Of a DNA stretch of 64,000 nt, positions 5,246 through 62,766 are shown one piece after another. Origin of the DNA: a virus; IMG/VR virus record IMGVR_UViG_3300034073_003340, positions 356,634 through 420,633 of that record; one strand, written 5' to 3'. The notes beneath the pieces were generated by a model. The model saw only the letters and a list, made by a program, of their open reading frames with translations, was not told the origin of the DNA and searched no databases. How positions within the stretch are numbered: the stretch's first letter is position 1; every line of letters starts with the position of its first letter. The position numbers and the translations under genes were made by a program.

Positions 5246-5334
5246 AGAATACAGAATTTAGGATATGTTTTATACAAGCTTTGCTTGCTTGAAAAGCATA
5301 TAAACAAAGCTTTATATCTGCTTAGTTCTGCAGA

Positions 5335-7164: not shown

Positions 7165-7254
7165 TCTGACCTCAGAGTAAACAGGGGATGTCTGATATTT
7201 AGTAGGTGTCTATCCATGCTCTGATACTAAGTCCTTGATGTTGAAATCGCATTA

Positions 7255-8535: not shown

Positions 8536-8619
8536 GTTTTGCCTCTGAGATATCTGATAGTGATACGGACCGCAACCGCGGACTGTCTACTTATCACTAT
8601 CAGATATTATCAGGGTAGT

Positions 8620-9084
8620 TTATACACGCTTGCTCAAGAGACGCTTGAACAAACCAATGAAGCGATTACCTAAACATTCAAGTTGAGTTTTGATAGAAGG
8701 ATCTCGCTGAGGCGTGATATCAGTCAGGCCGTTATAACGATCCAAGAATTTCCAAGAAATATCCTTGGCTCCGAAAACCTCAAGAGCCTTGAATGCCATT
8801 TCTGGATCTAGGTCGCTACAGGTGTAGATGTCAAATTCAATAAAAGGCTGCTCGCACTCATCCCAAGTATGTAGGACCATATGAGATGTTGTGATGAGAA
8901 CCATCGCGGTCATTCCGCGATTTCCAACCTGTTCACAATATTCAGCAGAAGCCTCTTTGAGAACTTCCATATTCATTGCGTGAACGATGTCAGTAAGCCA
9001 CTGTTCGACCATTCGCTCATCCTTTTTCAAGGGCGGACGATCAACAGCGGCGTGAACAATCAGGTGCTTGTGAAGCTTTGCCAT
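8620..9084 (-). CDS. speD: S-adenosylmethionine decarboxylase proenzyme, class 1 (SpeH/SpeD-like)
   Basis: Close match to small bacterial/archaeal AdoMetDC: HLIVHA...GMTAMVLITTSHMVLHTWDE...IEFDIYTCSDLDPEMAFKALE versus [20 protein letters not shown]...IDLFTCG. The Ser-His processing site is retained. Confidence 0.75.
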   Translation of the reverse strand: MAKLHKHLIVHAAVDRPPLKKDERMVEQWLTDIVHAMNMEVLKEASAEYCEQVGNRGMTAMVLITTSHMVLHTWDECEQPFIEFDIYTCSDLDPEMAFKALEVFGAKDISWKFLDRYNGLTDITPQRDPSIKTQLECLGNRFIGLFKRLLSKRV

Positions 9085-9169
9085 TTTATCTCCTAATCAA
9101 AAGATCGCGCTCTGCGATAAGCGTGTCTCGGGAAGATTAGGAAATCCGCTTCTTCCTCCGTAGCACTGT

Positions 9170-9616
9170 TTAGAAAAACTTTGCCGTAGCGGTGATATTT
9201 ATCGGACTAGAGATCTTCTCATATCCTCGACTGGCTATGAGGTCATTGGACTTTACTGGCTTGAATCCAGCGTCACGATCCAACGACCAAGTGATATGAA
9301 AAGTCTTACCGTCTGGTCGAACGGTTGTTCCGTCCACCTCTACAACCAGGGCTTCAATACCCAAGGGATCACAAGCATAACCAACCACCTTAAAAGTAGA
9401 AGCCTCGGGTAATGGCTGATCGCTCTTGACTCCCATCTTATACGTGATGTGATGACCAATGAACTCAGGGAACTTGGGAGGGAAAATGCTGGCAAGGTGT
9501 GAGCGACTTTGGTCACTGACTTCGAACGCCTGGTAGCCCCCGCGAGGCTTAGGCGCACTTTCCAAGATGTCTTTTGCTCTCATTTTTCCTCCACAAGAAA
9601 ACTTCTTATTGCGCAC
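9170..9616 (-). CDS. Hypothetical protein
   Basis: 148-aa ORF; the start may be at the internal MRAKD. Confidence 0.4.
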   Translation of the reverse strand: MRNKKFSCGGKMRAKDILESAPKPRGGYQAFEVSDQSRSHLASIFPPKFPEFIGHHITYKMGVKSDQPLPEASTFKVVGYACDPLGIEALVVEVDGTTVRPDGKTFHITWSLDRDAGFKPVKSNDLIASRGYEKISSPINITATAKFF

Positions 9617-9723
9617 CTAATGATAGACGTCAACCTTGATTTGATAAATCGTTCTGTATCCTGGTAGAAATAGACTTCTAGGGTTCTATACCTGTAAAAA
9701 GAATTCATAAGCAGAGGCAAGAG

Positions 9724-11595
9724 ATGTCCAATAACATTAAGAAACTAACAGATTATCAGCACGCTAGACTCAGAACAGAGATGTATCTGGGCTCAAGAGC
9801 GCTTCATACCCAAAGCGTCCTACAGTTTGTAGATGGTGTTCCTAAGCCAGTTGAAACAAGTTGGGTTCCGGCAACCTATACGGCTTTCAGAGAAGTTCTA
9901 GACAATGCCTTAGATGAGGTGGTAGGCCATGGACACGGATCCAGGATTGACGTAAACTACGACGTCAAGACTAGGGAAATCAGTATTTCTGATGACGGGC
10001 GTGGTATCCCCTTTACCTATGATGAATCACATAAGATGCATCTTGCTACCTTGGTTATGACCGAAGCGCGAGCTGGTCGAAACTTTGAGGAGCGTGGCGA
10101 AGTAGCAGGCACCAATGGTATTGGTGCGTCGGTTGTAAACTTTTGTTCAGAATATTTCCGAATGGAAATCAACAAGGACGGTGAACGTTTTCAACAAGAG
10201 TTCACGCAGGGCAATGCGGTTTTCGGTGATGAGCTTCAAGTTGGTAAAGCTAAAATCACCAAGAAGCAAGGTAAGAACGGAACCAAGATTACATTCAAAC
10301 TTTCAGACGAAGTATTTCCTGACCTAACACTACCTGAGGAATTTATCAGGACCAGAGTAACAGAGGTCGCGATCTGTAATCCTCTTATCAAAGTCTATTA
10401 CAATGGTGAACAGATCAAGGTAAAGCCCCGTCCAGAGCAAAGTTTGTTTCCTGGTTTGAAGCCTATTGCTCTTGAGGTAAAGGAAGACACGTTCCGTTCG
10501 CGCTTTTGGATTGTGCCTAACTGGATTGATGGCGGTGAACACGTTCACACGATTGTAAACAACATTCCCGCGTTCAACGGCGGGGTTCATATCGACACAT
10601 TCCGTCGTTTGTTCTATGGAAATCTTCTGACCGCGCTGGAGCGTGAAAGCAAGCGTCGCAAATTGAGTCCCAACCGCAGTGACGTCACTGAGGGTGTTCT
10701 GATCTACAATATTACGAACATGCGAGCTCCTAACTTTGACAGCCAGAGCAAGACTCGACTGATCAACGAAGAGGTAGGTAAGATCCTCAAGGATCACCTC
10801 GACAACCCAGAACTCTACAAGGACTTCATCAAGAAGAACAAAGAGTGGATTGAAGAGATCTACAAGCGTTGCGCAGAGCGTACGATGAAAAAGGATCTTG
10901 GGGACTTAGCAAAGGCTGCTAAGAAGAACCTTCGTAATAAGGTTCCTCGTCTCATGGACGCTGCGGGTCAAGATAGATCCAAATGTATCCTATTTCTAGC
11001 AGAGGGTGAATCAGCCATCTCAGGAATGGGTGCCGCCCGCGATCCTGATCTACATGGCGGTCTCGGCATGAAAGGCAAGGTTCTCAACGTTAACGGTGAA
11101 ATGCCCAAGAGGGTTATCGAGAACAAAGAGCTCGCTGACATCATGAATTGCTTGGGGCTGATTATTGGCCAAAAGGCGCACCGTGGTGCTTTGCGTTATG
11201 GTAAGGTTTACATTGCGCACGACATGGATCCTGACGGTTTGAACATTGGCGCTTTGATGATCAATTTTTTCCACACTTATTGGCCTGAGCTGTTTGATCC
11301 CAATCAGGAACCCTTTGTTCATATTTTTCGAACTCCCTTTATTATTGCGGAAAAGGGTAAGACTCGCAAATATTGGTATGCCCACAATTATCATGAGTTC
11401 AAACCTGAAGAATATAGTGGTTGGACCATCACGCGGGCCAAGGGGCTTGGAACGCTAACTAGGGAAGATTGGGAATATAGCTTAAAGAACCCAGAAGTAT
11501 ATCCGGTCTTGGATGATGGCAAAATTGGTGAAACTCTAGATTTGATTTTCAATAGCAAACGTTCAGACGATCGCAAGGCGTGGATTGGACTCTAA
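9724..11595 (+). CDS. DNA topoisomerase II large subunit (T4 gp39+gp60-like, GyrB-type ATPase plus Toprim)
   Basis: GHKL ATPase motifs (EVLDNALDE, DDGRGIP, GTNGIGAS), a Toprim segment (LFLAEGESA..., DMDPDG), and a length of 623 aa consistent with a fused 39/60. Confidence 0.85.
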   Translation: MSNNIKKLTDYQHARLRTEMYLGSRALHTQSVLQFVDGVPKPVETSWVPATYTAFREVLDNALDEVVGHGHGSRIDVNYDVKTREISISDDGRGIPFTYDESHKMHLATLVMTEARAGRNFEERGEVAGTNGIGASVVNFCSEYFRMEINKDGERFQQEFTQGNAVFGDELQVGKAKITKKQGKNGTKITFKLSDEVFPDLTLPEEFIRTRVTEVAICNPLIKVYYNGEQIKVKPRPEQSLFPGLKPIALEVKEDTFRSRFWIVPNWIDGGEHVHTIVNNIPAFNGGVHIDTFRRLFYGNLLTALERESKRRKLSPNRSDVTEGVLIYNITNMRAPNFDSQSKTRLINEEVGKILKDHLDNPELYKDFIKKNKEWIEEIYKRCAERTMKKDLGDLAKAAKKNLRNKVPRLMDAAGQDRSKCILFLAEGESAISGMGAARDPDLHGGLGMKGKVLNVNGEMPKRVIENKELADIMNCLGLIIGQKAHRGALRYGKVYIAHDMDPDGLNIGALMINFFHTYWPELFDPNQEPFVHIFRTPFIIAEKGKTRKYWYAHNYHEFKPEEYSGWTITRAKGLGTLTREDWEYSLKNPEVYPVLDDGKIGETLDLIFNSKRSDDRKAWIGL

Positions 11596-11608
11596 ATCTT
11601 GGTGACCA

Positions 11609-11893
11609 ATGAGCTATCATGACTGGCTTTCAATATGGTATTCCCCTAGTGAAGATGACATAATTGCCTTTATAACACTAGAGCGAATTGCGGAAATTGG
11701 GGGTGTTGATCTTTCCAACACCCCCAATGGGGTTGACGCCCACCAGATAAACTATGGTCTTTCTGTCATACAGAGATGGTGTCGACACCACTGCTCTTCG
11801 GTTCCAAGACCGGTCAATATTAGGGGTAAATCAGGCTTCGCCTTTACAAACCAGTCTGACGCAGTTCTGTTTAAACTTACCTGGGGTGGATAA
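11609..11893 (+). CDS. FKLTWGG-family small protein (array member 1)
   Basis: C-terminus WCRHHC...DAVLFKLTWGG; 1-nt TAATG overlap with the next gene. Confidence 0.65.
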   Translation: MSYHDWLSIWYSPSEDDIIAFITLERIAEIGGVDLSNTPNGVDAHQINYGLSVIQRWCRHHCSSVPRPVNIRGKSGFAFTNQSDAVLFKLTWGG

Positions 11894-12183
11894 TGGAATC
11901 AGATTACGACTACATAACAATTTGGATGACAACCAGGAATCCATCAAACGAAGACTACACTACATCAAAGTTGAGCAATGAGTGTGTTGAATGGCTGGAG
12001 ACCAATGTTGGCAAAGGTCTCTACAATTTTCACGCTTGGCTTCTATCCCATGACGACGACGATGTTCAATGGTGTTATTTAGGGTTTGAATGGCAGGACG
12101 GCAGATTATCAGATTATAGAAAATTCATGTTCAAAGATAGAAGAAAAGCTTTTCTTTTCAAATTGATTTGGGGAGGAAAGTGA
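11893..12183 (+). CDS. FKLTWGG-family small protein (array member 2)
   Basis: C-terminus ...VEWLETNVG...KAFLFKLIWGGK. Confidence 0.65.
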   Translation: MESDYDYITIWMTTRNPSNEDYTTSKLSNECVEWLETNVGKGLYNFHAWLLSHDDDDVQWCYLGFEWQDGRLSDYRKFMFKDRRKAFLFKLIWGGK

Positions 12184-12458
12184 AACAGTTTGTTTTCACT
12201 AGAAGTCGCCAGACTCCAGGAAATTCTATTAATGCCTGGCGATTGGGCGAACTCATGGGAGTGAAATTTGAAATCCTAGAAACCTATGAAAAATCGTGGA
12301 ACCAATTTGCTACCAGAATTATTGACGAGCTAAGTCTCTGGTGTAAGAATAGTGGGATAAGGCATTTTGGTCTTGGCTATACTCAGATCGCTATTCAAAT
12401 AACATTTGCGGAACCAGCAGATGCTATGCTTTTTAAGTTGAGATGGCACAATGCCTAG
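12168..12458 (+). CDS. FKLTWGG-family small protein (array member 3)
   Basis: C-terminus LWCKNSG...DAMLFKLRWHNA; 16-nt overlap with the previous gene. Confidence 0.65.
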   Translation: MGRKVKQFVFTRSRQTPGNSINAWRLGELMGVKFEILETYEKSWNQFATRIIDELSLWCKNSGIRHFGLGYTQIAIQITFAEPADAMLFKLRWHNA

Positions 12459-12654
12459 ACCACCTGAACCTGGATACCTACGATTCAATCCTCCTATAGC
12501 TCTGGGATCTGATCGATATTTTCGAGCCTGGGCCCTACTGGAAGATATGGGCATCAAAAACAAGGTGGCCTTTATCTACAGAGGAAGACAAGATCTCCAC
12601 GGTCTGGCCTTTCCTTCAAAAGAACAAGCAATGATTTTTAAGTTGAGGTTGTGA
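12451..12654 (+). CDS. FKLTWGG-family small protein (array member 4, short)
   Basis: C-terminus EQAMIFKLRL; ATGA-type coupling to its neighbours. Confidence 0.55.
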   Translation: MPRPPEPGYLRFNPPIALGSDRYFRAWALLEDMGIKNKVAFIYRGRQDLHGLAFPSKEQAMIFKLRL

Positions 12655-12905
12655 TGGGAACGGTTCACCGAAATGGCACTCCGCCAAAAAAGCTACTATT
12701 CAAAAAAGTAATCACGTTCTCTGACATGAAGTTCAATGAGGAAATCATTTGTAAATGGGCTCGAGAACACTTGGTTCATCATATGCAATATGATTTTGTC
12801 TTATTCAATGGTTCCAAGGGTAAGCTGAATAGATCAGTTGAATTCACTGCTTGGTTTCAAACCAAAACAGACTCTGAACGTTTTGAGTTAGCGTGGTTTC
12901 AATGA
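12651..12905 (+). CDS. Divergent family member (array member 5)
   Basis: C-terminus TDSERFELAWFQ resembles the motif weakly; translationally coupled to both neighbours. Confidence 0.45.
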   Translation: MMGTVHRNGTPPKKLLFKKVITFSDMKFNEEIICKWAREHLVHHMQYDFVLFNGSKGKLNRSVEFTAWFQTKTDSERFELAWFQ

Positions 12906-13198
12906 ATCAAAAAATCTACATAGTGGATAGAGAAGACCAGGTGGGTTGGTATCTAGATCCTGAATCCATAAGCTTTTGCCTCAACCTAAAGGATAAAAAG
13001 CGAGAGGTGAGAGAATGGCTAGAAGAAATGACCAATAGTATTGTCGTCATAAGCGGCCAGGGCAAGATGCCAAGATGTGGCACCGAGGATCATCCCACGA
13101 ATATGTTTAGTTCTATTCAAAGACATCAGTTCAGAGTATATTTTGCCGATGAGCAAGATGCTATGATCTTCAAGCTTAGGTGGGGAGGTTCTCCTTGA
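12893..13198 (+). CDS. FKLTWGG-family small protein (array member 6)
   Basis: C-terminus EWLEEMTN...DAMIFKLRWGGSP. Confidence 0.65.
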   Translation: MVSMNQKIYIVDREDQVGWYLDPESISFCLNLKDKKREVREWLEEMTNSIVVISGQGKMPRCGTEDHPTNMFSSIQRHQFRVYFADEQDAMIFKLRWGGSP

Positions 13199-13476
13199 GC
13201 AGTAATGTCTTTGAATGTGATGTTGATAACAAACATTACTGGATTATTTCTGTAGGTCTTGGTTCGTCTATAGCAATGCGTTTGTTAGACGTAGCCAGGT
13301 CTGAGGGTCGATGCCCTATGAGTCTGAGCAATCTAGCTGATGAAATACTCGATGCTTGTGGTCAATGGTGCTTTGAAAATTGTTCAGGAAATTATCAGCT
13401 TGACCCAACCTATAGATTAGAGATTTGGTTTGATGATCCAAGTGACGCAATGCTTTTTAAGTTAACTCATGGGTAA
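13180..13476 (+). CDS. FKLTWGG-family small protein (array member 7)
   Basis: C-terminus CGQWCFENC...DAMLFKLTHG. Confidence 0.65.
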   Translation: MGRFSLSSNVFECDVDNKHYWIISVGLGSSIAMRLLDVARSEGRCPMSLSNLADEILDACGQWCFENCSGNYQLDPTYRLEIWFDDPSDAMLFKLTHG

Positions 13477-13669
13477 CAATATGTTTAGTTGTAGATTATG
13501 GAAAATTACGATTTCGTCATTGTTTCCAAACGGTAACAACGTCAGAAACGTCTTTTGGGCTTACAACTTTGATGAGATCAGAGCGAGAGCAGCAGCAAAG
13601 CGATGGATCAAAAATGAAAACAACGGCGAGTCCGTTGACACCATCGTATCGGTTGACGTTATCAAGTAA
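13469..13669 (+). CDS. Small hypothetical protein inside the array (no family motif)
   Basis: 66-aa ORF translationally coupled to member 7 and lacking the FKLTW tail. Confidence 0.35.
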   Translation: MGNNMFSCRLWKITISSLFPNGNNVRNVFWAYNFDEIRARAAAKRWIKNENNGESVDTIVSVDVIK

Positions 13670-13752
13670 GAGCTTAGAAGAGGGCATATGAGAAAACGAT
13701 CAGCCCTTTTCAGCGAACACTAGGAAGCAATCCCGCTTCCTGGAGTATTGTT

Positions 13753-14022
13753 ATGTCTTGGAGCCCTCCCCGTAAGTATAAGGGGAAGAGAAGTCAGTGG
13801 CCGCAGGCTGCTGAAGTCACGATTCATTATCCCGAAACCCTGTCGGGCCGTTCTCTGAATGCCATCAGCTCACGCGAAGCCGTCCGCCAGATGCTTTATG
13901 AAATGGAAGAATGGTGTGAAACCCATTGCTCGCATGAATGGTATTCTGCCGGATATTCTCGGTGGTCTTTTGCTAAGACTTCTGAGGCGGTATGGTTTAA
14001 GATGGTCTTTGGAGGCAAATAA
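13753..14022 (+). CDS. FKLTWGG-family small protein (array member 8)
   Basis: C-terminus EWCETHCSHEWY...EAVWFKMVFGGK. Confidence 0.6.
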   Translation: MSWSPPRKYKGKRSQWPQAAEVTIHYPETLSGRSLNAISSREAVRQMLYEMEEWCETHCSHEWYSAGYSRWSFAKTSEAVWFKMVFGGK

Positions 14023-14387
14023 TGTCAGAAATGAAAATCACCAGGGTTTGGTGGCGAATCTTGAGACCTTACAAGGTCGAGTGGCAGGAAGCCTATTCCA
14101 AGCATCAAACTCAGGCCGGGGGTGGTCCGTTGAGGGGCGAAGAACTTCAAGGACCCTTTTATGTGATGCGATCTAAGGTTCAAAATTTTCTAGTAAATTT
14201 GCCGGAAGCATCATTCTTTGGAATCTCATATAAGGCATGCTGCTATGTCTACCAGACCAGACGGGTCGACTTTGGAACTGCTCCGGGACCATACGGTGGA
14301 AAAATCATAGCAAGTCCTCCGCCGCCATTCTATATGGCTAGGAAAGCAGATGCCCTGATGCTAAAGCTAGCGTGTGGAGGAGATTGA
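14022..14387 (+). CDS. FKLTWGG-family small protein (array member 9, divergent)
   Basis: C-terminus DALMLKLACGGD; 1-nt overlap with the previous gene. Confidence 0.55.
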   Translation: MSEMKITRVWWRILRPYKVEWQEAYSKHQTQAGGGPLRGEELQGPFYVMRSKVQNFLVNLPEASFFGISYKACCYVYQTRRVDFGTAPGPYGGKIIASPPPPFYMARKADALMLKLACGGD

Positions 14388-14733
14388 GCCTGGTCCAGCG
14401 CATGGAAGCGCAGAGAACGCATCCGTTAGGGTAGTCTCTGGAATACGTCTGAGGATTGGATTCACCGATCAAAAATTCAAGTATAGATTTGATTCACGTA
14501 ATTTCTATTGGAAACATGGTATCTCCCATGAAGTTCATCGATGGCTTAAAAGAACCTTTGGTCCCCAATGTCAAAATCGTGCGCTTTGGGATAACGAAAA
14601 CCCCGAGGATGGTCAGTGGATTTATTTAGGAAGTCAGAACCGCAAGAATCGCTCACAAAATACAGTGACGCTCCAGTTCAGATCTGTGAGTCAGGCATTG
14701 TTATTCAAGCTGACTTGGACGGGGCGTCTCTAG
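14374..14733 (+). CDS. FKLTWGG-family small protein (array member 10)
   Basis: C-terminus RWLKRTFG...QALLFKLTWTGRL. Confidence 0.65.
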   Translation: MEEIEPGPAHGSAENASVRVVSGIRLRIGFTDQKFKYRFDSRNFYWKHGISHEVHRWLKRTFGPQCQNRALWDNENPEDGQWIYLGSQNRKNRSQNTVTLQFRSVSQALLFKLTWTGRL

Positions 14734-15080
14734 AGTCTACCGGGCGCATTATACCGGATCATATAGGCAAAAGCATCAGACTAACTCAAGGATACAAAGT
14801 AAGTATACGTGGCCCCTCTCAGGGCCCATATAGTGGCAAAATTAATGGGTTTCATCGACACGGCTTCCCTTTGGATCTCAAGGATTGGTTAGACCGAAAT
14901 GTTGGTGATACTGCCCCTCATCATTTCTGGGAGGAGGGCCAAGGTGACTGGCTTTATCAAGGAAGTAGGTGGGCAAAAGGATATTCTAGTTTCAAAGGCG
15001 GAAGTCTTTATCTGGATTTCCGCATCAGGGATCGTCACAAAGCCTTACTCTTCAAGCTAACCTGGTATGATACTCTGTAG
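14616..15080 (+). CDS. FKLTWGG-family small protein (array member 11); start uncertain
   Basis: C-terminus DWLDRNVG...KALLFKLTWYDTL. The only in-frame ATG (14616) lies 118 nt inside member 10 in another frame, and there is no canonical start between 14734 and about 14870. Confidence 0.5.
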   Translation: MDLFRKSEPQESLTKYSDAPVQICESGIVIQADLDGASLESTGRIIPDHIGKSIRLTQGYKVSIRGPSQGPYSGKINGFHRHGFPLDLKDWLDRNVGDTAPHHFWEEGQGDWLYQGSRWAKGYSSFKGGSLYLDFRIRDRHKALLFKLTWYDTL

Positions 15081-15351
15081 ACTCCCATATGATCGCTGCT
15101 CGCAGCGATTTCACTATCATAACGACTGGGGTCGGCCAACAGTCAGTGTAGGCCTTAGAACTGATATGGACGAATGGTTTGTTGAGTATATGGGCAAGCG
15201 TCCACGTTATGATATAAACACTTGTCCTGGTTATATTGAATTCTATATGCCCAACCGTGGACTAGCAGCGTTATTCATACTAAGTTGGATCGGTGAGGAA
15301 TCTGTGATGAAGAACAAGCCTGTGCCCCGACCAGGTGGGGATCTCTGCTAA
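15067..15351 (+). CDS. Divergent family member (array member 12)
   Basis: C-terminal region ...GLAALFILSWIGEES; coupled to member 11. Confidence 0.45.
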   Translation: MILCRLPYDRCSQRFHYHNDWGRPTVSVGLRTDMDEWFVEYMGKRPRYDINTCPGYIEFYMPNRGLAALFILSWIGEESVMKNKPVPRPGGDLC

Positions 15352-15412
15352 CCTAGATATAGACGTGGCCCTGGTGTAATAAGTAAAATACACATATAAA
15401 CAGAGGCCACTA

Positions 15413-16765
15413 ATGAATCAAAATAGCTCATCAGATTATATCCTAGACACCAGTCGCGAATACTCAATTTACGTTTGCGAAAGCCGAGCAATTCCAAAAG
15501 TTGCTGACGGTCTCAAAGACGCCCAACGCAAGGCGTTATGGTTGGTTCGCAATAGATCAGATAAAACAAAAACCGTTTCGCTAGCTGGTGAAATGATTTC
15601 CAGCGGCCTTTATCTACATGGTGACCAAAGTGCGGCCGGGGCTATCAGCATGTTGGCTGCTCCATATGTTAACAATGTTCCACTTTTGGAAGGTATTGGT
15701 TCGTTTGGAACCCGAGTGGCACCGGTAGACGGTATCGGCGCTCCGCGTTATACCTATGTCAAACGTGGAAAAGCGGCCCAAGATCTTATGTTTATGGATC
15801 TTGATATCGTACCGGTCAAAGAAAATTATGACGGTTCCACTATCGAACCCCAAAACTTCCTTCCCCTCATCCCAACAGTGCTCTTAAATGGAGTCTCAGG
15901 CATTGCTGTTGGTTGGTCTACCGAGATCTTACCCAGATCCTTTAAGAGCCTCGTAGACGCCACATTGGCCATTTTAGACGGAAAAAAGATCAAGCGTATT
16001 CCACCTTCCTATGATCTCTACGACGTGGGGGTCAAACACTTGGAGGATAATTCTTGGGAGTTCACTGGTAAGTTGGAGATTGTTGATACCAGCACGATCA
16101 AAGTTACCGAACTGCCTCCAGAACTCACGTTGGAGAAATTCAAAGAACGTCTCAACACCTATGAAGACGAAAATAAGATCTCTTCATATACTGATCGTTC
16201 AACTGATACCATTGATATCACGATCAAAATGGCTAGAGGGTCTTGTAAGGGTTGGTCTTCTACTAGAGCTATTGAATATTTCAAACTCAAGCAGAAGAAG
16301 TCAGAACGTATTGTGGTTATCGACTGGAATGGATCCTCTATTCGTCAGTATGAAAGCGCCGAAAAGCTTGTTGAGGATTTTGTTGAATGGCGACTGGGAT
16401 GGTATAAGACCCGCTATGAAAACAAAGTGGCCAAGGACGAATATGAACTAGGATTTTGGAAGGGGGTCAAGCTTTGCTTTGATGATAAACTTCCTGCTCG
16501 ACTAGGTGCTATCAAGAGTCGATCTGAACTAGATCAGGACGTCAACAACGTTACATCAAAGCTTGCCCTTGATAACAAGCGTATTGACCGCATCGTCAAT
16601 CTCCCAGCTCATCGTTGGACCAAGGATGCGTATGGTGATGTTTTGGCCAAAATCAAAGAGCTAGAAGCTAACATTAAGGAATACAAGCGTATTCTAAAGG
16701 ATCCTGAGGAGCGAAAGTCCATCTACCGATCAGAAGTAGAGGCTCTAAAAAAGACCAAGTTCTAA
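15413..16765 (+). CDS. DNA topoisomerase II medium subunit (T4 gp52-like, GyrA-type breakage-reunion domain)
   Basis: N-terminal DGLKDAQRKALW (the GyrA/ParC DGLKPVQRR signature) and a length of 450 aa like gp52. Confidence 0.8.
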   Translation: MNQNSSSDYILDTSREYSIYVCESRAIPKVADGLKDAQRKALWLVRNRSDKTKTVSLAGEMISSGLYLHGDQSAAGAISMLAAPYVNNVPLLEGIGSFGTRVAPVDGIGAPRYTYVKRGKAAQDLMFMDLDIVPVKENYDGSTIEPQNFLPLIPTVLLNGVSGIAVGWSTEILPRSFKSLVDATLAILDGKKIKRIPPSYDLYDVGVKHLEDNSWEFTGKLEIVDTSTIKVTELPPELTLEKFKERLNTYEDENKISSYTDRSTDTIDITIKMARGSCKGWSSTRAIEYFKLKQKKSERIVVIDWNGSSIRQYESAEKLVEDFVEWRLGWYKTRYENKVAKDEYELGFWKGVKLCFDDKLPARLGAIKSRSELDQDVNNVTSKLALDNKRIDRIVNLPAHRWTKDAYGDVLAKIKELEANIKEYKRILKDPEERKSIYRSEVEALKKTKF

Positions 16766-20134: not shown

Positions 20135-20689
20135 TCAGCCAATATATAAGGCTGAATTTGAACCATGTTCAAAACATTCTACCGAAACAAGACGAACGTC
20201 CGGATTGACAGCATAACGACCCAATTCGCCAGTCTTCATCTTTTCCAGTAGTTCAGATGCTTTATCATAAACCAACTTTGCTGTTAGTTCACATCCTACA
20301 CCAGGAACGATCCTGAGGTTACATACCCTTCCTTCTTCAAAAGGCTCAGCTTCGGAGTCAGGTTCTAGGCCATCGTAAACAGAATGAATGGAAAAGCTGG
20401 CTAGCTCTTTGAACTTTTCAAGGGCCGGATCATCCTTGGCGACCAAGATAGTGTGATCAAACATATAGTCTAGGTATTCCTTAATTGGCTTCATACCGCC
20501 AAAATCAAAACACCAGTTCTTTTCATCAAGGGTCTCTGATTCAAAGACAAACTTGAAGCCCAGACTATATCCGTGAAGCGTAGAACAGTGCGAGTGATTT
20601 GCCTTCCACTGACGGAAGCAACAGGAGAGACCACGGTCGGTTCCGTAGGTCTTGGTAGATTGAAACTTTGCCATTTTTATGGTTCTCAT
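20135..20689 (-). CDS. queD: 6-carboxytetrahydropterin synthase / 6-pyruvoyl-tetrahydropterin synthase family (QueD-like)
   Basis: CxxxHG motif region (HSHCSTLHGYSLGFKFVFE) and overall PTPS-like layout; common in T4-like marine phages. Confidence 0.55.
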   Translation of the reverse strand: MRTIKMAKFQSTKTYGTDRGLSCCFRQWKANHSHCSTLHGYSLGFKFVFESETLDEKNWCFDFGGMKPIKEYLDYMFDHTILVAKDDPALEKFKELASFSIHSVYDGLEPDSEAEPFEEGRVCNLRIVPGVGCELTAKLVYDKASELLEKMKTGELGRYAVNPDVRLVSVECFEHGSNSALYIG

Positions 20690-21796: not shown

Positions 21797-22096
21797 CTAA
21801 TGGGTTTTACAGGCAAGCGTTCCTAGCCATACTAACTTGAAATAGATAGCATCTTGCTTGTTTTCAAAAGATATATTGTGAGGTGTCGTCGTATTATCAA
21901 TGGAGTAACAAGCTTTGGTATGTTTGTTCAACCAAATTGTTTCTTCCATATTGGGTTTGCGAACCAGTCCAATCTGATATTGGTAATATTTGAGGGACTG
22001 GCGATGGGGATATCTCCAGACACTAAGACGCTGGTGGTCTGCGGGAGTCAGCCGGTGCTTGATATCCCAATATTTCCGGCTCACTGTCCACTCCAT
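21797..22096 (-). CDS. FKLTWGG-family small protein (cluster 2 member)
   Basis: C-terminus DAIYFKLVWLGT. Confidence 0.55.
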   Translation of the reverse strand: MEWTVSRKYWDIKHRLTPADHQRLSVWRYPHRQSLKYYQYQIGLVRKPNMEETIWLNKHTKACYSIDNTTTPHNISFENKQDAIYFKLVWLGTLACKTH

Positions 22097-22371
22097 GTCA
22101 ACTTGAACAATACAGCTTCATTGACATCAGAAAACCAGATGTCAACCACAAATTGAAAAGCGATGTCGTTGCCATTGATATATATTGGCTCATAGGTTGA
22201 AACATAGACATCATTTTCGCAGTGGTCCCTTATCCATCTGCACATCTCGTCAGATAACGATGGAATAGATGATGACGATTCAATCTCAGGGTGATTTACT
22301 GGCAGGGCAACAGAGAAAAACCCAGCCTTTTTCCTGAATGTTTCGCTGCGGTTGTAGAGAAATATATTCAT
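22081..22371 (-). CDS. FKLTWGG-family small protein (cluster 2 member)
   Basis: C-terminus RWIRDHCEND...EAVLFKLTWSGQ; overlaps its neighbours by 16 nt and 4 nt. Confidence 0.65.
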   Translation of the reverse strand: MNIFLYNRSETFRKKAGFFSVALPVNHPEIESSSSIPSLSDEMCRWIRDHCENDVYVSTYEPIYINGNDIAFQFVVDIWFSDVNEAVLFKLTWSGQ

Positions 22372-22598
22372 AGGAAAGTTAGTTTAAACAGCAAAGCATG
22401 GTCAAGCTTTTCAAAACACCAAGTTACCACAAAATGAGGCTCGGGTGTTTTAACTAGTTTCCATCCCGCAGTCGTAACTCTACCTGTATTGTGGTCTTTC
22501 ATCCATTGTTTGAACACCGGGGTCGCCACTGGATTATTTCTTATTCCCCTGGTTACCGTTAGACTGTTGGCCGGCACCGTGACATGATACTTTTTCAT
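22368..22598 (-). CDS. FKLTWGG-family small protein (cluster 2 member)
   Basis: C-terminus KQWMKDHN...HALLFKLTFL. Confidence 0.6.
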   Translation of the reverse strand: MKKYHVTVPANSLTVTRGIRNNPVATPVFKQWMKDHNTGRVTTAGWKLVKTPEPHFVVTWCFEKLDHALLFKLTFL

Positions 22599-22858
22599 AG
22601 AAATGTCAACTTGAACATCGCCGCGTGGACCTGGTTGCTGAAGAAGATCTTGGTGGGAAGCTCTTTGATCAGGTTGTGACTAATGTTCATGATGATCCAG
22701 TGGTCACGAACTGGCGTGTATTGGTGTTGGTCAGGGTGGCGGAACTGTCGAGGCCCAACAACCCTTTCCAACCACTCTTCAGCTTCCTGGGTCAACTTTA
22801 CCGCATAGCCTGGCATCCATACACGATCATTGTCGCGATGGACGCTAATTGAAATCAC
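22595..22858 (-). CDS. FKLTWGG-family small protein (cluster 2 member)
   Basis: C-terminus EEWLERVVG...AAMFKLTFL. Confidence 0.6.
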   Translation of the reverse strand: MISISVHRDNDRVWMPGYAVKLTQEAEEWLERVVGPRQFRHPDQHQYTPVRDHWIIMNISHNLIKELPTKIFFSNQVHAAMFKLTFL

Positions 22859-23145
22859 GAGAACTTGGCCTCGAACTCCTGAGCTACCTCGATTCGATCC
22901 TTGGGGAAGAACACGGTTGTGATGTCGTGCTCGTCCGACGAACGCGAGGTCATGACCTCGATACCATGGCCCTCAATGAAGGCACGAGCCTCATCGCCGA
23001 TCACCCAATGAAAGGTGTCCGGCCACTTGTGATCCGTTTCCTTCTTCATATGAGCGAAGCCGACCATGCGTACGGGAATACACAGGGCCTGCTTCGCCCG
23101 TATGCGCTCAAAAGCGGACATGATCTCGGCGTGACGGTCGGTCAT
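22855..23145 (-). CDS. Hypothetical protein in a GC-rich cassette with the CCA gene
   Basis: 96-aa ORF with a 4-nt overlap to cca; local GC is clearly higher than the flanks (by eye). Confidence 0.45.
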   Translation of the reverse strand: MTDRHAEIMSAFERIRAKQALCIPVRMVGFAHMKKETDHKWPDTFHWVIGDEARAFIEGHGIEVMTSRSSDEHDITTVFFPKDRIEVAQEFEAKFS

Positions 23146-52146: not shown

Positions 52147-52273
52147 GCAATTGGAAAAGAAAGACGAAAAGATTTACAAGATTATCGATGACTATTCAAA
52201 AAACAACATTACCATAACTGAAGCCATGAATGGCCTCAAACTGGTTCTAATTGAGATCAAGGCAAAACTCTAA
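52028..52273 (+). CDS. Small single-TM protein coupled to the PAS sensor gene
   Basis: 81 aa with a hydrophobic LLLGIIGVLGWYCF segment; its stop overlaps the ATG of the PAS gene. Confidence 0.35.
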   Translation: MGDIIKSVVEMIAKGDGGALTALLLGIIGVLGWYCFRLTKQLEKKDEKIYKIIDDYSKNNITITEAMNGLKLVLIEIKAKL

Positions 52274-53943
52274 TGATGAAATGGCTGTTTGAAAGCAAAG
52301 AAGCTGCTGCCAAACGGACGTTGCGTGCTGAGACCTTGAAAGCGGCTCTGGAATCCAGTGAAGCTCTTGAAAAAGCCGCCAAAGGAACTTTGGATCTTGC
52401 GGCTGATGTAACAGAAACTCTGCAGGCCAGAATTGATGACTACACGACTCAAATTGATCAGACAGCAAGACTGCTGAATGACGCCCTGATGTTGGTAAGT
52501 CCAGAAGGCGAAATACAGAGTTATAATCCAGCAGCTGAATCCATGTTTGGCTGGAAAAAGAGGGAAGTAATTGGCAAGAAGATTAGTCTCCTTTTTCAAT
52601 TCCCAAAAGAAACCGAACTAGACGTTAGCTTCATGGAATCTCTGGTAACTCAGGTGAATACCAATGACGAGTTTACCAGTGTAAATTATGAAGATTTCAT
52701 GGGTATACGAAAAGACGGTAGTATCATCTACATAGACGTCTCCGCTAGTAAAGTGGTTCGCAGCGACAAAAAAGTTTACTATATCATGTTGGTCAGAGAT
52801 GTCACACATCAGGTCAACAATAGCAAAATGATTCGAGAATTAGCTGAGCATAATCAAGAACTACTCACTACGATTGATGCGTCTAGCACCGGATTTATGA
52901 TTCTCAATCCAGATGGTTCTGACTTCAGTATAAGCTTTGTAAATGAAGGATTTGCCAAGCTTATTGGTTTCAAACGATCCGCTATAAAAAAGATGAATCT
53001 CAGGGATCTGTTTGGAACAGATTCTACCTTCTGGACCATTCGCAGAACTTTGCTTGAAGGTGTTGAAGGACGTCACGAAATACAGTTTGATATCGGGGTC
53101 AGCCAGACGGTTGTTTTCGAGGTCCATTTGACACCAGTGAAGAAGGGACCCAATCCGGTTCAATGGATATTGGTTTTCTATGAAACAACTGAGCTAAAGA
53201 AAGCCTATCAAGAACTTGGAAAAAGCCAAGCTACATTCAAAGCATTCAGTGACGCTAGCTCTGAAAGTTTGATCATCCATGACCATACACGCCTAATGGA
53301 ATGGAACGACAGGGTCATACTCTTGACAGGATATTCAGACTCGGAACTTGAAACTATGAATCCTTCTGATTTACTTCATCCTCTTGAAAGAGAGAGAATG
53401 TTGTTCAAGAAGAATGAAGTCGAAGATTCCTCATACGAGACCCTGTTCCTCACCAAGAGCGGTGAAGTAAAGGATGTGGCAATCAACAGTAAGCCAATTG
53501 AATGGGACAATACCGAGGCCCGAATTGCTATCGTCAGAGACGTCACAGCATTCAAGGATGTAGAAACTCAACTCAAAACATCAAGAGAGCGATATAAGAC
53601 AGTAGTGGACAACACCATTGATCTCATTGTTTGCTTTAATAAAGACTTTGAAATTACTTTTTCAAATCAAACATTTCGTGATTACTTTGATGTAGAGGTT
53701 GAAGATATAAACGGGTTCAGTCTCTTGGAGATCATACCTGAGTCAGACCACCAGAAATTCATCAAATATATGTTGGAAGTTCTACCGGGCCAAGAGATTC
53801 GCCGCGGAGTTCATAGGGTCAAGAGACATGACGAGATACGCTGGCAGGACTGGATCGATCGAGGAATTTTTGATGAAGAAGGTATCTTGATAGAAGTTCA
53901 AAGCGTCATACGTGACATCACACATCTGATTCCCAGTCAATAA
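52273..53943 (+). CDS. Multi-PAS-domain sensor protein (about four PAS/PAC repeats, no kinase or output domain seen)
   Basis: Repeated PAS signatures, e.g. SPEGEIQSYNPAAESMFGWKKREVIGKKISLLF, FMILNPDGSDFSISFVNEGFAKLIGF, and IDLIVCFNKDFEITFSNQTFRDYFDV. Confidence 0.7.
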   Translation: MMKWLFESKEAAAKRTLRAETLKAALESSEALEKAAKGTLDLAADVTETLQARIDDYTTQIDQTARLLNDALMLVSPEGEIQSYNPAAESMFGWKKREVIGKKISLLFQFPKETELDVSFMESLVTQVNTNDEFTSVNYEDFMGIRKDGSIIYIDVSASKVVRSDKKVYYIMLVRDVTHQVNNSKMIRELAEHNQELLTTIDASSTGFMILNPDGSDFSISFVNEGFAKLIGFKRSAIKKMNLRDLFGTDSTFWTIRRTLLEGVEGRHEIQFDIGVSQTVVFEVHLTPVKKGPNPVQWILVFYETTELKKAYQELGKSQATFKAFSDASSESLIIHDHTRLMEWNDRVILLTGYSDSELETMNPSDLLHPLERERMLFKKNEVEDSSYETLFLTKSGEVKDVAINSKPIEWDNTEARIAIVRDVTAFKDVETQLKTSRERYKTVVDNTIDLIVCFNKDFEITFSNQTFRDYFDVEVEDINGFSLLEIIPESDHQKFIKYMLEVLPGQEIRRGVHRVKRHDEIRWQDWIDRGIFDEEGILIEVQSVIRDITHLIPSQ

Positions 53944-58512: not shown

Positions 58513-60015
58513 TTAGTCGCTCAGCTTCCTAGCTAGGTTACGTAGTTGAGCCCCGTTGGCTTGTACCTTAGACGGAGGAGTAGCCTCAGGGCGTGCTAGT
58601 ATAGGATTCTGTGCGGCTGGCCCTGTAGGCCCCTTATCAGGGCTGTAAGACGTGCCTATGTTCTTGGGAACAACCGTAGTGACTTTGTTAGCCAAACCTG
58701 CCTGTAAGCCGCCCACCCCTGATCCACGACCTTCTAGCATTTCCTGAGGAGCATCCTCAATCCTCAATGTATTGGGATCAATCTTCAAGAAGATCTTCTG
58801 ACCAACTCCTGACGACGAACGTGTCTTAAGGAACTGGATCTGATATTCACCACGATCCTTCATTGCTGCGGTTGTAAGAATCGCGAGCACATTGTCAGCC
58901 GTATTAATCTTTGAGATACCACCAGCAATGTGGCTGGCGTCAAAGTCCTGCTCTTGGATAGAAGCACGGTTGAGCTGTGACGCGGTAGCGCACAAGATGT
59001 TCCATTCCACTGCCAGCGCGCGAAGCTCTTCCGACGTGAACTTGTCCTTGATGAACTGGTCACTGACGTTGATCTTACCACTGTTTGGATGCATCAAATC
59101 CAGATAGTCTACCACGATGGCATCAGGACGAGTTCCAGTTTGGATTTCAAACTCTTGTAGATAGGCCCTAATATCATTGGCGGTGGTTCCCGCCATTGGC
59201 AGTTTCTTGATTTGTAGCTTGCCCCATTTATGGGTCTTGCCACCAGCTTTTCTCATCATACCCAGTCGCATTGCGACATCGTTGATGTCTTTGAAGATCA
59301 TCTTCGTTGGGGTCTCGGTGATCATCGCATCATACCGGAGTCCAACTAGCTCTTCGCTTAGTTCCATAGTAATATAGATGACACTCAGACCCATCTGAAC
59401 CCAATTCAGGGCTAGATTCTGTAGAAACAAACTCTTACCCGTGCCTGGGCCTCCGCAGAAAAAGGTTATCTCTCCGCGATTCATACCACCATACAACTTG
59501 CTGTCGATATCTCTCCAGCCCGTAGAGGTAGTATCAGTTTTATCTCTCATTCGCTCAAGGCGTTCTAGTGGATTTTCAAAATAGTCCGTGCCCAGTTCAG
59601 TCTGTAGACTGATGAGCATGTTTTCTTTTGAACGCCTCTCTAGTTCCGCATAGTCACCCTGAGCAATTAGCTGAGGGCCATCATACACCAAAGCTTCCAT
59701 GGCTTTATGACGACAGAACCCACTTATCTCATCCAGGAACCAGTCAACATGGTTGCTCTGGATATTAGGAATAATGGGTAAATCGAGATTTGTTTCAGCC
59801 TTGACCTGTTCTGGTGTTGGCAATGCTCGATATTGCTCGGTGAACTTTTTGATAAAGCGAACGGCTGGACGAAGACGCTCATTCCAATATTCTGGCTTAA
59901 CGATATTCTGACAACGAACGTAGGCGCTGTTGTCGGTAAGCATGAACTGAATGAGGACCTTCTGGACCTCTTCGCTATATTCCTTGAGCTCTTGTTGTTC
60001 TTTTCTTTGGCTCAC
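58513..60015 (-). CDS. Replicative DNA helicase, DnaB family (T4 gp41-like)
   Basis: Walker A FFCGGPGTGKS, an ITMELSEE-type motif, and the RecA-like core; adjacent to the primase gene as in T4 41-61. Confidence 0.7.
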   Translation of the reverse strand: MSQRKEQQELKEYSEEVQKVLIQFMLTDNSAYVRCQNIVKPEYWNERLRPAVRFIKKFTEQYRALPTPEQVKAETNLDLPIIPNIQSNHVDWFLDEISGFCRHKAMEALVYDGPQLIAQGDYAELERRSKENMLISLQTELGTDYFENPLERLERMRDKTDTTSTGWRDIDSKLYGGMNRGEITFFCGGPGTGKSLFLQNLALNWVQMGLSVIYITMELSEELVGLRYDAMITETPTKMIFKDINDVAMRLGMMRKAGGKTHKWGKLQIKKLPMAGTTANDIRAYLQEFEIQTGTRPDAIVVDYLDLMHPNSGKINVSDQFIKDKFTSEELRALAVEWNILCATASQLNRASIQEQDFDASHIAGGISKINTADNVLAILTTAAMKDRGEYQIQFLKTRSSSGVGQKIFLKIDPNTLRIEDAPQEMLEGRGSGVGGLQAGLANKVTTVVPKNIGTSYSPDKGPTGPAAQNPILARPEATPPSKVQANGAQLRNLARKLSD

Positions 60016-60034: not shown

Positions 60035-61060
60035 TTATTTTAAGCGTTGTCGTTGTATACCTATTGATAACCTATCTTTGGTTCTGGCGTCAATAATCGA
60101 CCATATCGTATAGAGCTTACCATAGGCTTTTACGGCGTCTGCTGCGTCTTTTATTCCTTCATCCCAACGAGGGAAGGACACATACCAGCCTTGTGCTAGA
60201 GCAGTATCAACTAACCGTCCTCCCTGATTGGTGCGATCAGGTACGACAATTTTGGTTTTACCGGTTTGATTCAACCACTGAATCTGTTCAGGTGTTATTT
60301 TATCACCTAGCATCGCGACACCATTTACCGCGATTCCGTCAAATGGGCCTTCATTTATAAAAAGATATTCCCAATCCTCTTTGACGATATCGGTGTTGAA
60401 AATATAATGCGGTTGAACGTCACTATAATAGCGGCGACTGCTAGATCCGTTTACAATTCTAGCTGTCCAACCCACTATTTCATTTTCCCAGTAAAACGGG
60501 ATGATAACCCTCTGATTCATATGATCAGTAGTATCTGGGGTCCAATAATAGTCATAGGAAAGTAAAATATCCTCTCCTCTGTTGGCAACGTAAGTGAGAA
60601 CTTCTAGGAAATGAGGATCTTCACAGTTCTCTTCGAGCCAGAAGCTTATGGGCTTTGCCGACTTTGGTAGATTCCTGGATTCAAAGGTAATAGAAGCAGA
60701 GGCTTGCCGGGTAAATGATTGTTCAATACCACCGCCTTCGAGCATATTCTTACGGAGAAGAGATACATCAAAGTCAAGACGTCTGATCTTCTCACTAGGC
60801 ATGCCTAGCCATTCAAAATACTTTTTCCACTTTGGAGAAAATCGAGCACCGGGTGACCAGCCGGCTCGGAACCCACAGTTAAAGCAGGAAACCGAAGTCC
60901 GGCCGTCAGAGTCAAACAAGATACCAGATCTCTTTTTGGTGTCTGCCCTCATCTGTCCGTTATGAATACAGCATGGACCATTGAATGTGGTCCAGCGACT
61001 GGGGGTCTGCTTGCCCCCAGGTATACAGCTCATTAGAGCACTATAGATGAGGGTAGACAT
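60035..61060 (-). CDS. DNA primase (T4 gp61-like)
   Basis: N-terminal zinc ribbon CIHNG...KKRSG...CFNCGF aligns with gp61 CPVCGD...KARGW...CYNCNY. Toprim-like VIIPFY...FINEGPFDGIAV; 341 aa versus 342 aa in gp61. Confidence 0.75.
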   Translation of the reverse strand: MSTLIYSALMSCIPGGKQTPSRWTTFNGPCCIHNGQMRADTKKRSGILFDSDGRTSVSCFNCGFRAGWSPGARFSPKWKKYFEWLGMPSEKIRRLDFDVSLLRKNMLEGGGIEQSFTRQASASITFESRNLPKSAKPISFWLEENCEDPHFLEVLTYVANRGEDILLSYDYYWTPDTTDHMNQRVIIPFYWENEIVGWTARIVNGSSSRRYYSDVQPHYIFNTDIVKEDWEYLFINEGPFDGIAVNGVAMLGDKITPEQIQWLNQTGKTKIVVPDRTNQGGRLVDTALAQGWYVSFPRWDEGIKDAADAVKAYGKLYTIWSIIDARTKDRLSIGIQRQRLK

Positions 61061-62766
61061 CAGGCAAAGAGACCGTTGTTTACTATCTGCATTTTGGGCT
61101 TGTTTTCAGCAAGATGTGGTGCTTCTGCTTCTTTCTTAGCCTTTAACACATTAACGTGATCCTTTTGGTTGGCAACCTCGAACAACTGAAGATCCAAGAC
61201 TCCCCTTTCCGCATTGTCACTAGCTAGATAGTTGAGAACCTTGCGATTTCTCTCAATAACAGACATTGGAGTTTCGCTGTTGAATACATCTTCAACAACC
61301 GATTTGATTTCAAGAAGTTGCTGAGGAACAGCCGCTGGGTCGCCCTTGTCATATAGATCCTGCGATTCGTAAACCCCCTCGAGGTGAACCTGGACATTAT
61401 GGTTCATCAACATCGCATAGGTGACTACGTCCCACGTTGAAGTAAACTTTGGATCCACGTTAACACAGATGTCGCCCATCTTGAGCTGCTCACCAATCTG
61501 AGTTCTAACAAACCTAGAGCCATCAACTCCGTCTAGACGTTCATGAAACATCTCTTCCAGCACATCGAGGAATGGACGATCAGCGTCTTTTCCCTTCTTG
61601 GGTAGAGGAATCTTATTACCAGAATCATCAAGAAGATATTTGATGCGGTCCTTTCCGGTTGAGATCATCTCATAACCAAGTTGTTCAACTCCTTCATCGT
61701 CAAGATAGGTGTTGGTTGGTAGATAATTTCGACCGTCTAGTTTCTCACCCTGAATACTCCAGCTGTCTTTGTTCAAGTTGTAGCCAAGGAAAACTTTACC
61801 ATAAGCAGCTAGAGTAAAGGGTGAGCTCACGTCATACGAGATAGTGAAATTGGGGTTAATCTGTTCACGAACTTGTCTCTGAATGGTCGTGTAGACACAA
61901 CCATGTTGGAACTTACCAACACCCAAGAAGTGCATCCAGTCACGATCCTGTAGGACTCCGTCATCTCTCATATTAATGATTCGACCCAGAGACATCTCAA
62001 AGTTCTCTTTGTGATGAGACGCAAGAGACCAACCCTCAAAGGGATAGTGCTTGACATTCTCATACCATATTTTTGACTCGCTGGCGTTTCGTCCCTGAAC
62101 CACATTTAAAAACTTAGTAGCACCAGGGACCCTGTTCTTCACAAAGTAATCGTTATTGATTAGAGTCTGAAGCATACAGGCATAGAACAGACGATCGTTC
62201 TTATTGTTGATGTTTCCGCCATTTTTGATAATCAGGTCATCCAGAGCATCCTTGTTTCCTGAATCCACAATATTGGGATCTAAAGGACTTTCAAGTCGCT
62301 GTAGATGTTGGTCAATATTACCAATCTGAATACCGCCAGTTGGGAAGTCGAGAATCATCGACCAATCGCAATTGGCTTCCATCCAGCGCATCATCCTCTC
62401 GCGAGTTTTGTCACCCTCAAACTTGATAGCACCGGTCTGAATCTGGAATCCACCCGAGTCACCTAGAACTGTTGTAGAGCCACGATCACGACCGGTGACC
62501 ATATCTTTACGTTCAGTAATACCACTGCTCTTTGCGGCCTGCCCAGCTGAATACAGAGCACTGGGCAGATAGAACAAGCTGCTATTAGGGTTGAAGAAGT
62601 TCAGTTCCTCGCGTGGAATAGGTGGCTCACGCTTGGGGTTTTCCGCATTGACATAGCGGACATACATTTCTGAAATGGCAGGAGTAAACCGCGCATAATC
62701 GCGGTATCTCTTGGAATAATCAATTCCGGGCATTGACGGCCTCTTGTTTTGTTCGTGTTTAACCAC
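61060..62766 (-). CDS. tRNA-guanine transglycosylase (TGT)-family protein, long form (DpdA/archaeosine-TGT-like)
   Basis: VLGDSGGFQI (the TGT DSGGFQ motif) and a later HFLGVG segment; 568 aa with extra N- and C-terminal regions. Confidence 0.5.
   Translation of the reverse strand: MVKHEQNKRPSMPGIDYSKRYRDYARFTPAISEMYVRYVNAENPKREPPIPREELNFFNPNSSLFYLPSALYSAGQAAKSSGITERKDMVTGRDRGSTTVLGDSGGFQIQTGAIKFEGDKTRERMMRWMEANCDWSMILDFPTGGIQIGNIDQHLQRLESPLDPNIVDSGNKDALDDLIIKNGGNINNKNDRLFYACMLQTLINNDYFVKNRVPGATKFLNVVQGRNASESKIWYENVKHYPFEGWSLASHHKENFEMSLGRIINMRDDGVLQDRDWMHFLGVGKFQHGCVYTTIQRQVREQINPNFTISYDVSSPFTLAAYGKVFLGYNLNKDSWSIQGEKLDGRNYLPTNTYLDDEGVEQLGYEMISTGKDRIKYLLDDSGNKIPLPKKGKDADRPFLDVLEEMFHERLDGVDGSRFVRTQIGEQLKMGDICVNVDPKFTSTWDVVTYAMLMNHNVQVHLEGVYESQDLYDKGDPAAVPQQLLEIKSVVEDVFNSETPMSVIERNRKVLNYLASDNAERGVLDLQLFEVANQKDHVNVLKAKKEAEAPHLAENKPKMQIVNNGLFA

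Follow-up and report, generated by a model that had tools for sequence, protein, structure and literature searches.

DNA carrying 7-deazaguanine is a major route by which phages get around restriction and CRISPR; DpdA serves as the signature gene of this modification. Enzymes that insert such bases into DNA are typically encoded in clusters with biosynthesis genes, whereas the tRNA-guanine transglycosylases (TGTs) that act on tRNA are usually encoded elsewhere (10.64898/2026.04.15.718813). The structure paper on DpdA assigns the general acid/base, base-recognition and nucleophile positions of the active site and describes a CxCx2Cx22H zinc site as conserved in the DpdA family (PMC10164549). 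A gene set with a DpdL-like member has been linked to dDG by Cui et al., and the DNA of the Flavobacterium phage immuto is fully modified. The DNA of Pseudomonas phage PA5oct carries a modified G, according to its restriction pattern and END-nuclease sensitivity; the authors point to gp162 (QueE) and gp230 (PTPS) and name no transglycosylase (PMC12191111). Vibrio phage 2.275.O is entered in the table of Hutinet et al. (2019) with FolE, QueD, QueE, QueC and YhhQ, and with the DpdA and DpdA2 columns empty.

Here, we describe a branch of the TGT/DpdA superfamily that is distinct, large, zinc-less and so far unannotated and that comes with a conserved gene cluster, starting from a gene in a 64-kb stretch of phage DNA, the whole of which is called the window below. 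A sequence-only reading of the window had proposed that this gene encodes a DpdA-like transglycosylase, an interpretation that is, overall, supported by our analysis.

A zinc-less TGT-type protein encoded beside a primase

The minus-strand open reading frame 61060..62766 is present and gives the 568 aa of the sequence-only reading when translated from a GTG, with LGDSGGFQ at residues 101-108. However, the protein starts at residue 12 in all homologues and in two independent gene calls, which, together with the Shine-Dalgarno sequence in front of the ATG, indicates that the real coding sequence is the shorter one (Table 1). An identical protein was found on a JGI contig of 435,856 bp, whose end comes 1.3 kb beyond the gene. 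The gene does lie in the same block as the primase and DnaB genes, as had been claimed, but it precedes the primase rather than standing downstream of it, and this order (TGT-like, primase, DnaB) recurs in Sinorhizobium phage Phosso and a metagenomic relative with 38% identity. At the junction TGATG, the stop codon of the transglycosylase gene (TGA) shares bases with the start codon of the primase gene (ATG), which implies that the two genes are co-transcribed and probably translationally coupled.

Table 1. Features of the window and active-site motifs of the family; residue numbers follow the 568-aa reading from GTG 62766.
Feature	Position	Strand	E. coli Tgt counterpart	Remarks
Phage-type QueD (6-carboxytetrahydropterin synthase-like)	20135..20689	minus		Motif CSTLHGY; start maybe Met at residue 6
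DnaB-like replicative helicase	58513..60015	minus		Third gene of the same co-directional block as TGT-like and primase
DNA primase, 341 aa	60035..61060	minus		phrog_47, E 1.9e-22
TGT/DpdA-like transglycosylase CDS	61060..62733	minus		557 aa
Shine-Dalgarno AAGAGG	62740..62745	minus		6-nt spacer before ATG 62733; favours shorter start
VLGD103SGGFQ			ILTD89SGGFQ	Acid/base Asp and F107 aromatic gate
MILD140FP			MIFD143EC	Base-recognition Asp
N221-V-V-Q224-G			GIIQG	
HFLGVGK (H279-x-L-G)			YLMGVGK	
SYD312VSSP (S310-x-D312)			MFD264CVMP	Nucleophile Asp
MNH456N (H456-N457)			TIH333N	Zinc-site remnant

The protein matched no Pfam family at E<=10 (PF01702 included), no NCBIfam model (Tgt models included) and no PHROG, and neither the single sequence nor a 33-sequence profile found a match in the PDB. 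It nevertheless belongs to a large family: 3,361 homologues were found at E<1e-3 in 90% clusters, all annotated as hypothetical and devoid of Pfam domains, often on contigs of 200-960 kb, and an exhaustive HMM search gave 1,117 clusters when grouped at 50% identity, 426 of them at E<1e-30. Among cultured phages, members occur in Phosso (52% identity), the PA5oct group (31%) and 2.275.O (24%), again all annotated as hypothetical.

An AF2 model built on the family alignment (pLDDT 85.5, pTM 0.84) predicts a (beta/alpha)8 barrel of the TGT type. In a Foldseek search against the PDB, its best 29 matches were TGT, ArcTGT and QTRT1/2, with generic barrels only after these, and all significant matches in the viral structure library BFVD were phage proteins of the TGT/DpdA type. 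Alignment of a 137-sequence family profile to E. coli Tgt spanned 302 columns (E 2e-5) and brought all motifs into register (Table 1); the Tgt sequence used scored 884 bits against the E. coli entries of the PDB. The positions so aligned include those that the DpdA structure paper assigns to general acid/base, base recognition and nucleophile (PMC10164549), the reference aspartates being D95/D130/D256 in DpdA and D102/D156/D280 in Z. mobilis TGT. D103, D140, P142, H279 and D312 do not vary across 138 diverse representatives, and residue 107 is F or Y in all of them. The three catalytic aspartates are also present in 60/60 cluster members; over more than 190 sequences, neither they nor the DSGG[FY]Q gate vary. 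The base-reading position is more variable, with Q224 in 126 of the 138 representatives and His in eight. A six-frame translation of 64 kb should contain an exact DSGGFQ about 0.002 times by chance (an estimate assuming uniform residue frequencies). Given the fold, the profile alignment and the conservation in the family, the DSGGFQ noticed in the sequence-only reading as a TGT hallmark is the TGT active-site motif and not a chance occurrence.

In contrast to the catalytic residues, the zinc site is gone. CxCxxC is absent from the window protein, from 60/60 cluster members and from 137 of the 138 representatives, the sole exception being a PhiXhv protein added as an outgroup, whose CTCPIC lies opposite RTQIGE of the window protein in the alignment. 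The zinc His is kept (H456 in 124/138), and a single Cys near the former site, C434, is found in only 75/138. The family has lost the Cys3-His zinc site, and a structural site regarded as "universally conserved" in TGT/DpdA enzymes proves dispensable. The sequence-only reading had named the absence of this motif beforehand as evidence against itself; since the site is structural and all three catalytic aspartates are intact, we do not accept it as such.

Linkage to 7-deazaguanine biosynthesis

Within the window, the only other 7-deazaguanine pathway gene is the QueD gene, 41 kb from the TGT-like gene. Its assignment as QueD-like, made from sequence by the earlier reading, holds: it matches Pfam PTPS (E 8e-13, 48.8 bits against a cutoff of 22.4) and the "QueD-like" phrog_2389 (E 1.5e-37) and is 41-46% identical to QueDs of phages with 7-deazaguanine DNA, while it falls under the NCBIfam QueD equivalog cutoff (30.9 versus 89.25 bits). 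Its motif has Tyr in place of the last residue of CxxxHGH, a variant also present in the QueDs of Phosso, PhiXhv and Flavobacterium phage immuto 2-6A, and the gene adjoins an Smr gene, exactly as in Phosso. No QueE, DpdL-like or glycosyltransferase (GT)-like gene was found within the 64-kb window. The window also encodes IF3 and a CCA-adding enzyme.

We then examined the gene neighbourhoods of relatives. Phosso and the window encode the same succession: a virion protein, the TGT-like protein, primase, DnaB and, farther on, a PAS protein. Other parts of the Phosso genome code for FolE, a QueE, a "glycosyltransferase" and a small protein adjoining the latter, and local searches that covered the genome except for 3.2 kb revealed neither QueC nor a second TGT. 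In PA5oct, the family member gp168 is directly followed by gp167 and gp166 and, later, by the QueE gp162; gp167 shares 42% identity with the glycosyltransferase of Phosso, and gp166 shares 59% with the small Phosso protein. This small protein is homologous to gp040 of Cellulophaga phage phiST (E 2e-15) and contains LxxxHRHxF, published as the signature of DpdL, which reads LGYIHRHIF in Phosso. The GT-like gp167 gave a weak match to Pfam Glycos_transf_1 (E 1e-3) and none in the PDB or PHROGs. Phage 2.275.O encodes a full-length member, AUS03049 (Prob 100, E 4.6e-47), directly ahead of QueF, YhhQ, QueC, an amidotransferase-like gene, FolE and QueE.

Metagenomic loci show the same linkage. In the IMG/VR loci centred on the GT-like gene, a family member is present in 64/80, always co-directional with that gene and at a median gap of 2.2 kb, together with a DpdL-like gene (71/80), FolE (57/80) and QueE (52/80), the dominant order being TGT-like, DpdL, GT, FolE, QueE. 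QueE-centred IMG/VR loci contain a family member within a few kb in 12/160 cases, compared with 2/160 for DpdA3 and 0/160 for a classical Tgt; the IMG/VR peptide scan missed the window's clade because the clade uses another type of QueE. Six metagenomic contigs are putatively common to the TGT-like and QueE matches, among the matches listed. A 462-kb IMG/VR contig that encodes a protein 79% identical to that of the window has DpdL-like, GT-like, FolE and PA5oct-type QueE genes in a row, implying that the window's clade possesses the pathway, as seen in this relative rather than in the window's own genome. In summary, the fold, the catalytic residues and the neighbourhoods of relatives tie this TGT-superfamily protein to 7-deazaguanine chemistry, as had been proposed.

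Proposed function and alternatives

The reading that we favour, with a probability of roughly 0.75, is that the protein carries out an active base exchange of the DpdA type, putting a phage-made, QueC-independent 7-deazaguanine into the phage's own double-stranded DNA as a protection against restriction. By analogy with TGT and DpdA, D103 would protonate the leaving guanine and D312 would attack C1', yielding a covalent enzyme-nucleic acid intermediate, with D140 and Q224 reading the Watson-Crick edge and F107 gating the pocket; a free 7-deazaguanine base would then take the place of guanine in a double displacement. The base would be made from GTP by FolE, QueD (encoded in the window) and QueE, giving 7-carboxy-7-deazaguanine (CDG), which, in a lineage without QueC, the DpdL-like decarboxylase homologue probably converts into 7-deazaguanine. 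The GT-like protein, nearly always found in the cluster, may add a further or auxiliary step. The coupling of the gene to primase and DnaB suggests that modification could take place at or just behind the replication fork, and the modified DNA would be shielded from bacterial defence nucleases.

The same fold and catalytic residues occur in tRNA TGTs, and the enzyme might instead place a phage-made 7-deazaguanine at position 34 or elsewhere in phage or host tRNAs, as part of the translation toolkit of jumbo phages. Bacterial Tgt likewise reads the base with a Gln, which fits this idea, as do the approximately 70 tRNAs of Phosso, including GUN-anticodon species, its aaRS, IF and RRF genes, and the IF3 and CCA-adding enzyme of the window. 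However, the window is devoid of tRNA genes, the transglycosylase gene is coupled to those of primase and DnaB in a conserved synteny, and the clustering with biosynthesis genes at 64/80 loci is the pattern of DNA-inserting enzymes. In PA5oct, whose DNA has a modified G, the 17-kb region that we examined shows no other transglycosylase, and the authors of the PA5oct study name none. Short forms of the family occur in bacterial integrative islands beside recombinases and a DNA methyltransferase, and the cells concerned already possess a Tgt. We therefore consider a tRNA role unlikely. The choice of base raises a similar question, since a DpdA-like enzyme could insert preQ0 salvaged from the host (or preQ1 or an archaeosine-type base), with the phage QueD merely raising the supply of precursor. 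Host-reliant phages with DpdA only are known (table of Hutinet et al. 2019), and the member of 2.275.O, whose cluster includes QueC, QueF and YhhQ, a preQ0 transporter, indicates that some members probably use preQ0 or preQ1. Yet QueC is absent from Phosso and from the GT-centred loci (0/80) and occurs in only 3/160 QueE-centred loci, and a DpdL-like gene is found instead, which makes salvage improbable for the window's lineage and the preQ0 or archaeosine-type base suggested by the sequence-only reading unlikely. Finally, we give very little credence to a use of the TGT fold for something other than exchange, be it an excising DNA glycosylase, a non-catalytic QTRT2-like subunit or a CBASS Cap10-like protein modifier: the invariance of the three aspartates and of DSGG[FY]Q points to an active exchange site, the tight co-directional clustering with enzymes that make free 7-deazaguanine supplies the incoming substrate, and no CD-NTase or QueC-like Cap9 partner was seen.

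Beyond DpdA-type exchange itself, we put forward a more specific scheme, which is possible but speculative. The five-gene cluster (zinc-less TGT-like, DpdL-like, GT-like, FolE and QueE) might install an undescribed 7-deazaguanine derivative in DNA, with the GT-like protein either decorating the base or being the "missing enzyme" of Cui et al. for dDG, and the jumbo-phage enzyme might sit in the primase-helicase operon for coupling to the fork. The clade could then be the unidentified DpdA of PA5oct- and 2.275.O-like phages and a fifth DpdA subfamily. The labels "DpdA5" and "DpdA6" are absent from the searchable literature, and AUS03049-like proteins could carry some DpdA label in the supplement of Cui et al. 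(2023).

Although the family comprises at least 1,117 clusters at the 50% identity level and occurs at hundreds of IMG/VR loci, it is invisible to Pfam, PHROGs and NCBIfam; surveys built on such models hence under-count modified phages, including the therapeutic candidate PA5oct. Naming it provides a gene candidate for the modified G of PA5oct, predicts a QueC-independent base (DG or CDG-derived) and flags a conserved GT-like partner enzyme that is so far uncharacterised.

Comparison with known transglycosylases

Bacterial Tgt (PF01702) has the catalytic motifs DSGGFQ, xxD, IxQG, LxGVG and xFD in register with the window family and likewise a Gln at the base-reading position. The window protein is only 10-12% identical to it, lacks the zinc cysteines and, in contrast to the lone gene of Tgt, is encoded in a replisome operon or, in relatives, a biosynthetic cluster. 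The bacterial DpdA of Salmonella Montevideo (PDB 7ui4), which inserts preQ0 into DNA, is 13% identical to the window protein, which itself has no Pfam TGT match. Cys368, Cys370 and Cys373 of its CxCx2Cx22H site are missing in the window family, and its base-recognition position holds His181 instead of Gln. The window protein also exceeds it in length by about 120 residues and has both an insert of 85 residues modelled at low confidence (about 345-395) and a C-terminal extension made of helices. Moreover, no DpdB partner was seen for the window family, which has a GT-like partner instead, and its likely base would be DG or CDG-derived rather than preQ0.

The phage enzymes DpdA1 and DpdA2 (9g, CAjan, Vibrio nt-1/VH7D) are likewise phage-encoded and clustered with FolE, QueD and QueE, and the BFVD matches to our model include an nt-1 protein and the Dinoroseobacter R5C protein (E 4e-8 to 1e-5). 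DpdA1 and DpdA2 could be found by homology in 2019, whereas the window's clade was missed and 2.275.O was entered without a DpdA; it is on this ground that we set the clade apart from them. DpdA3 (Cellulophaga phiST CGPG_00065, Campylobacter CP220 and Flavobacterium immuto gp206) also comprises very divergent TGT homologues with DpdL and QueC-less pathways, and is associated with dDG/dADG and complete replacement of G. Its proteins have approximately 260 aa compared with approximately 557 aa in the window family, and phiST has no GT-like partner. Membership in DpdA3 was rejected, as hhalign to phiST CGPG_00065 and immuto gp206 gave partial alignments (Prob 21.9% and 34.3%, E about 1e-3 to 4e-4) that scored no better than E. 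coli Tgt and left the N-terminal DSGGFQ region unaligned.

The closest sequence relatives outside the family are the long TGT-like proteins of the PhiXhv/Motura type, from phages of approximately 200 kb (hhalign Prob 96-99%). The "hypothetical" protein of Xanthomonas phage PhiXhv-15 has 568 aa, ADSGGFQ and the same motif order, with a QueD 5 kb away. In contrast to the window family, this type has His as its base-reading residue and retains the zinc motif in canonical form (CTCPIC...HN). The PhiXhv-15 protein matches phage proteins annotated as "TGT domain-containing" or "tRNA guanine transglycosylase", and it thus forms a bridge from the window family to the recognised TGTs.

Phage genome assembly and short bacterial homologues

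A TGT-like protein (zinc-less TGT/DpdA-like transglycosylase) identical to that of the window is encoded on a 435,856-bp JGI contig (L002, JGI 3300035670 Ga0310129_0000005), and the gene order is also matched by a 124,950-bp Logan contig. The JGI contig stops inside DnaB, 1.3 kb downstream of the TGT-like gene, whereas the window runs on for 61 kb. Hence, either the window comes from a different assembly, made of this phage or of one nearly identical to it, or circular permutation of the JGI contig accounts for the difference.

A short form of the family, P0113, lies in a bacterial integrative island that also carries genes for a phage integrase, a serine recombinase, an N6/N4 DNA methyltransferase and DUF2779, as well as two divergent unknown genes (513 and 232 aa). 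The island may be a bacterial Dpd-like modification or defence module.

Partner genes and pathway variants in related loci

In most loci, the TGT-like/DpdL-like genes are adjoined by a gene for a glycosyltransferase-like (GT-like) protein, which is present in at least 586 IMG/VR loci and absent from the window. Its sole family signal was to Pfam Glycos_transf_1 (E 1e-3), with no match in PDB or PHROG. In Vibrio phage 2.275.O, AUS03050 directly follows the TGT-like gene in place of the GT-like protein, and an Ntn/GATase-like gene lies between QueC and FolE; together, these differences suggest that this phage tailors the base in another way at the downstream steps.

Many QueE homologues of large phage contigs (for example P0279, P0344, P0363 and P0366) are 430-645 aa long and carry Hint/intein domains (PF07591, PF14890), and hence are encoded by QueE genes interrupted by inteins. 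The QueE of Sinorhizobium phage Phosso (372 aa) carries an insertion compared to the ~300-aa forms. The same phage has a radical-SAM cluster, unrelated to its QueE locus, which may represent a second modification or metabolite pathway.

Features of the window and related loci (L-numbers denote loci with their own coordinates)
Feature	Location	Strand	Remarks
P0113, short TGT-like form, 444 aa	L015:10001-11335 and L016:7209-8543
GT-like protein, ~365 aa	L004:9611-10672		Pseudomonas phage PA5oct gp167
GT-like protein, ~365 aa	L009:799-1890		Phosso gene 224
GT-like protein, ~365 aa	L232:7983-9083
AUS03050, 370 aa	L018:13726-14838		2.275.O; weak Amidoligase_2 signal (E 1.8e-4)
Four radical-SAM proteins + oxidoreductase	L009:29870-42395		Phosso 179.9-192.4 kb; co-directional
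4-5 successive small genes, 76-99 aa	window 21797-23145	-	stops overlap starts
Similar series, about 8 small ORFs	window 11609-13669	+	co-directional
Gene repertoire	window 52273-53943, 15413-16765, about 1-16000	+, +, 	coordinates given jointly

Small-gene arrays and gene repertoire of the window

The minus-strand small genes of the window share a C-terminal motif, [LMY]FKL[TV][FW]... (LLFKLTFL, AMFKLTFL, LFKLTWSGQ, YFKLVWLGT), and thus look like a tandem paralogue array. No tRNA genes were found within the 64-kb window, which encodes IF3 and a CCA-adding/poly(A) polymerase-type nucleotidyltransferase. Its further products include SAM decarboxylase, class Ia RNR and topoisomerase II, ClpX, TelA, SPFH/flotillin, PAAR and NADAR proteins and a multi-PAS-domain protein that is conserved in Phosso. 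This gene set is a 'cell-like' jumbo-phage repertoire of the typical kind.
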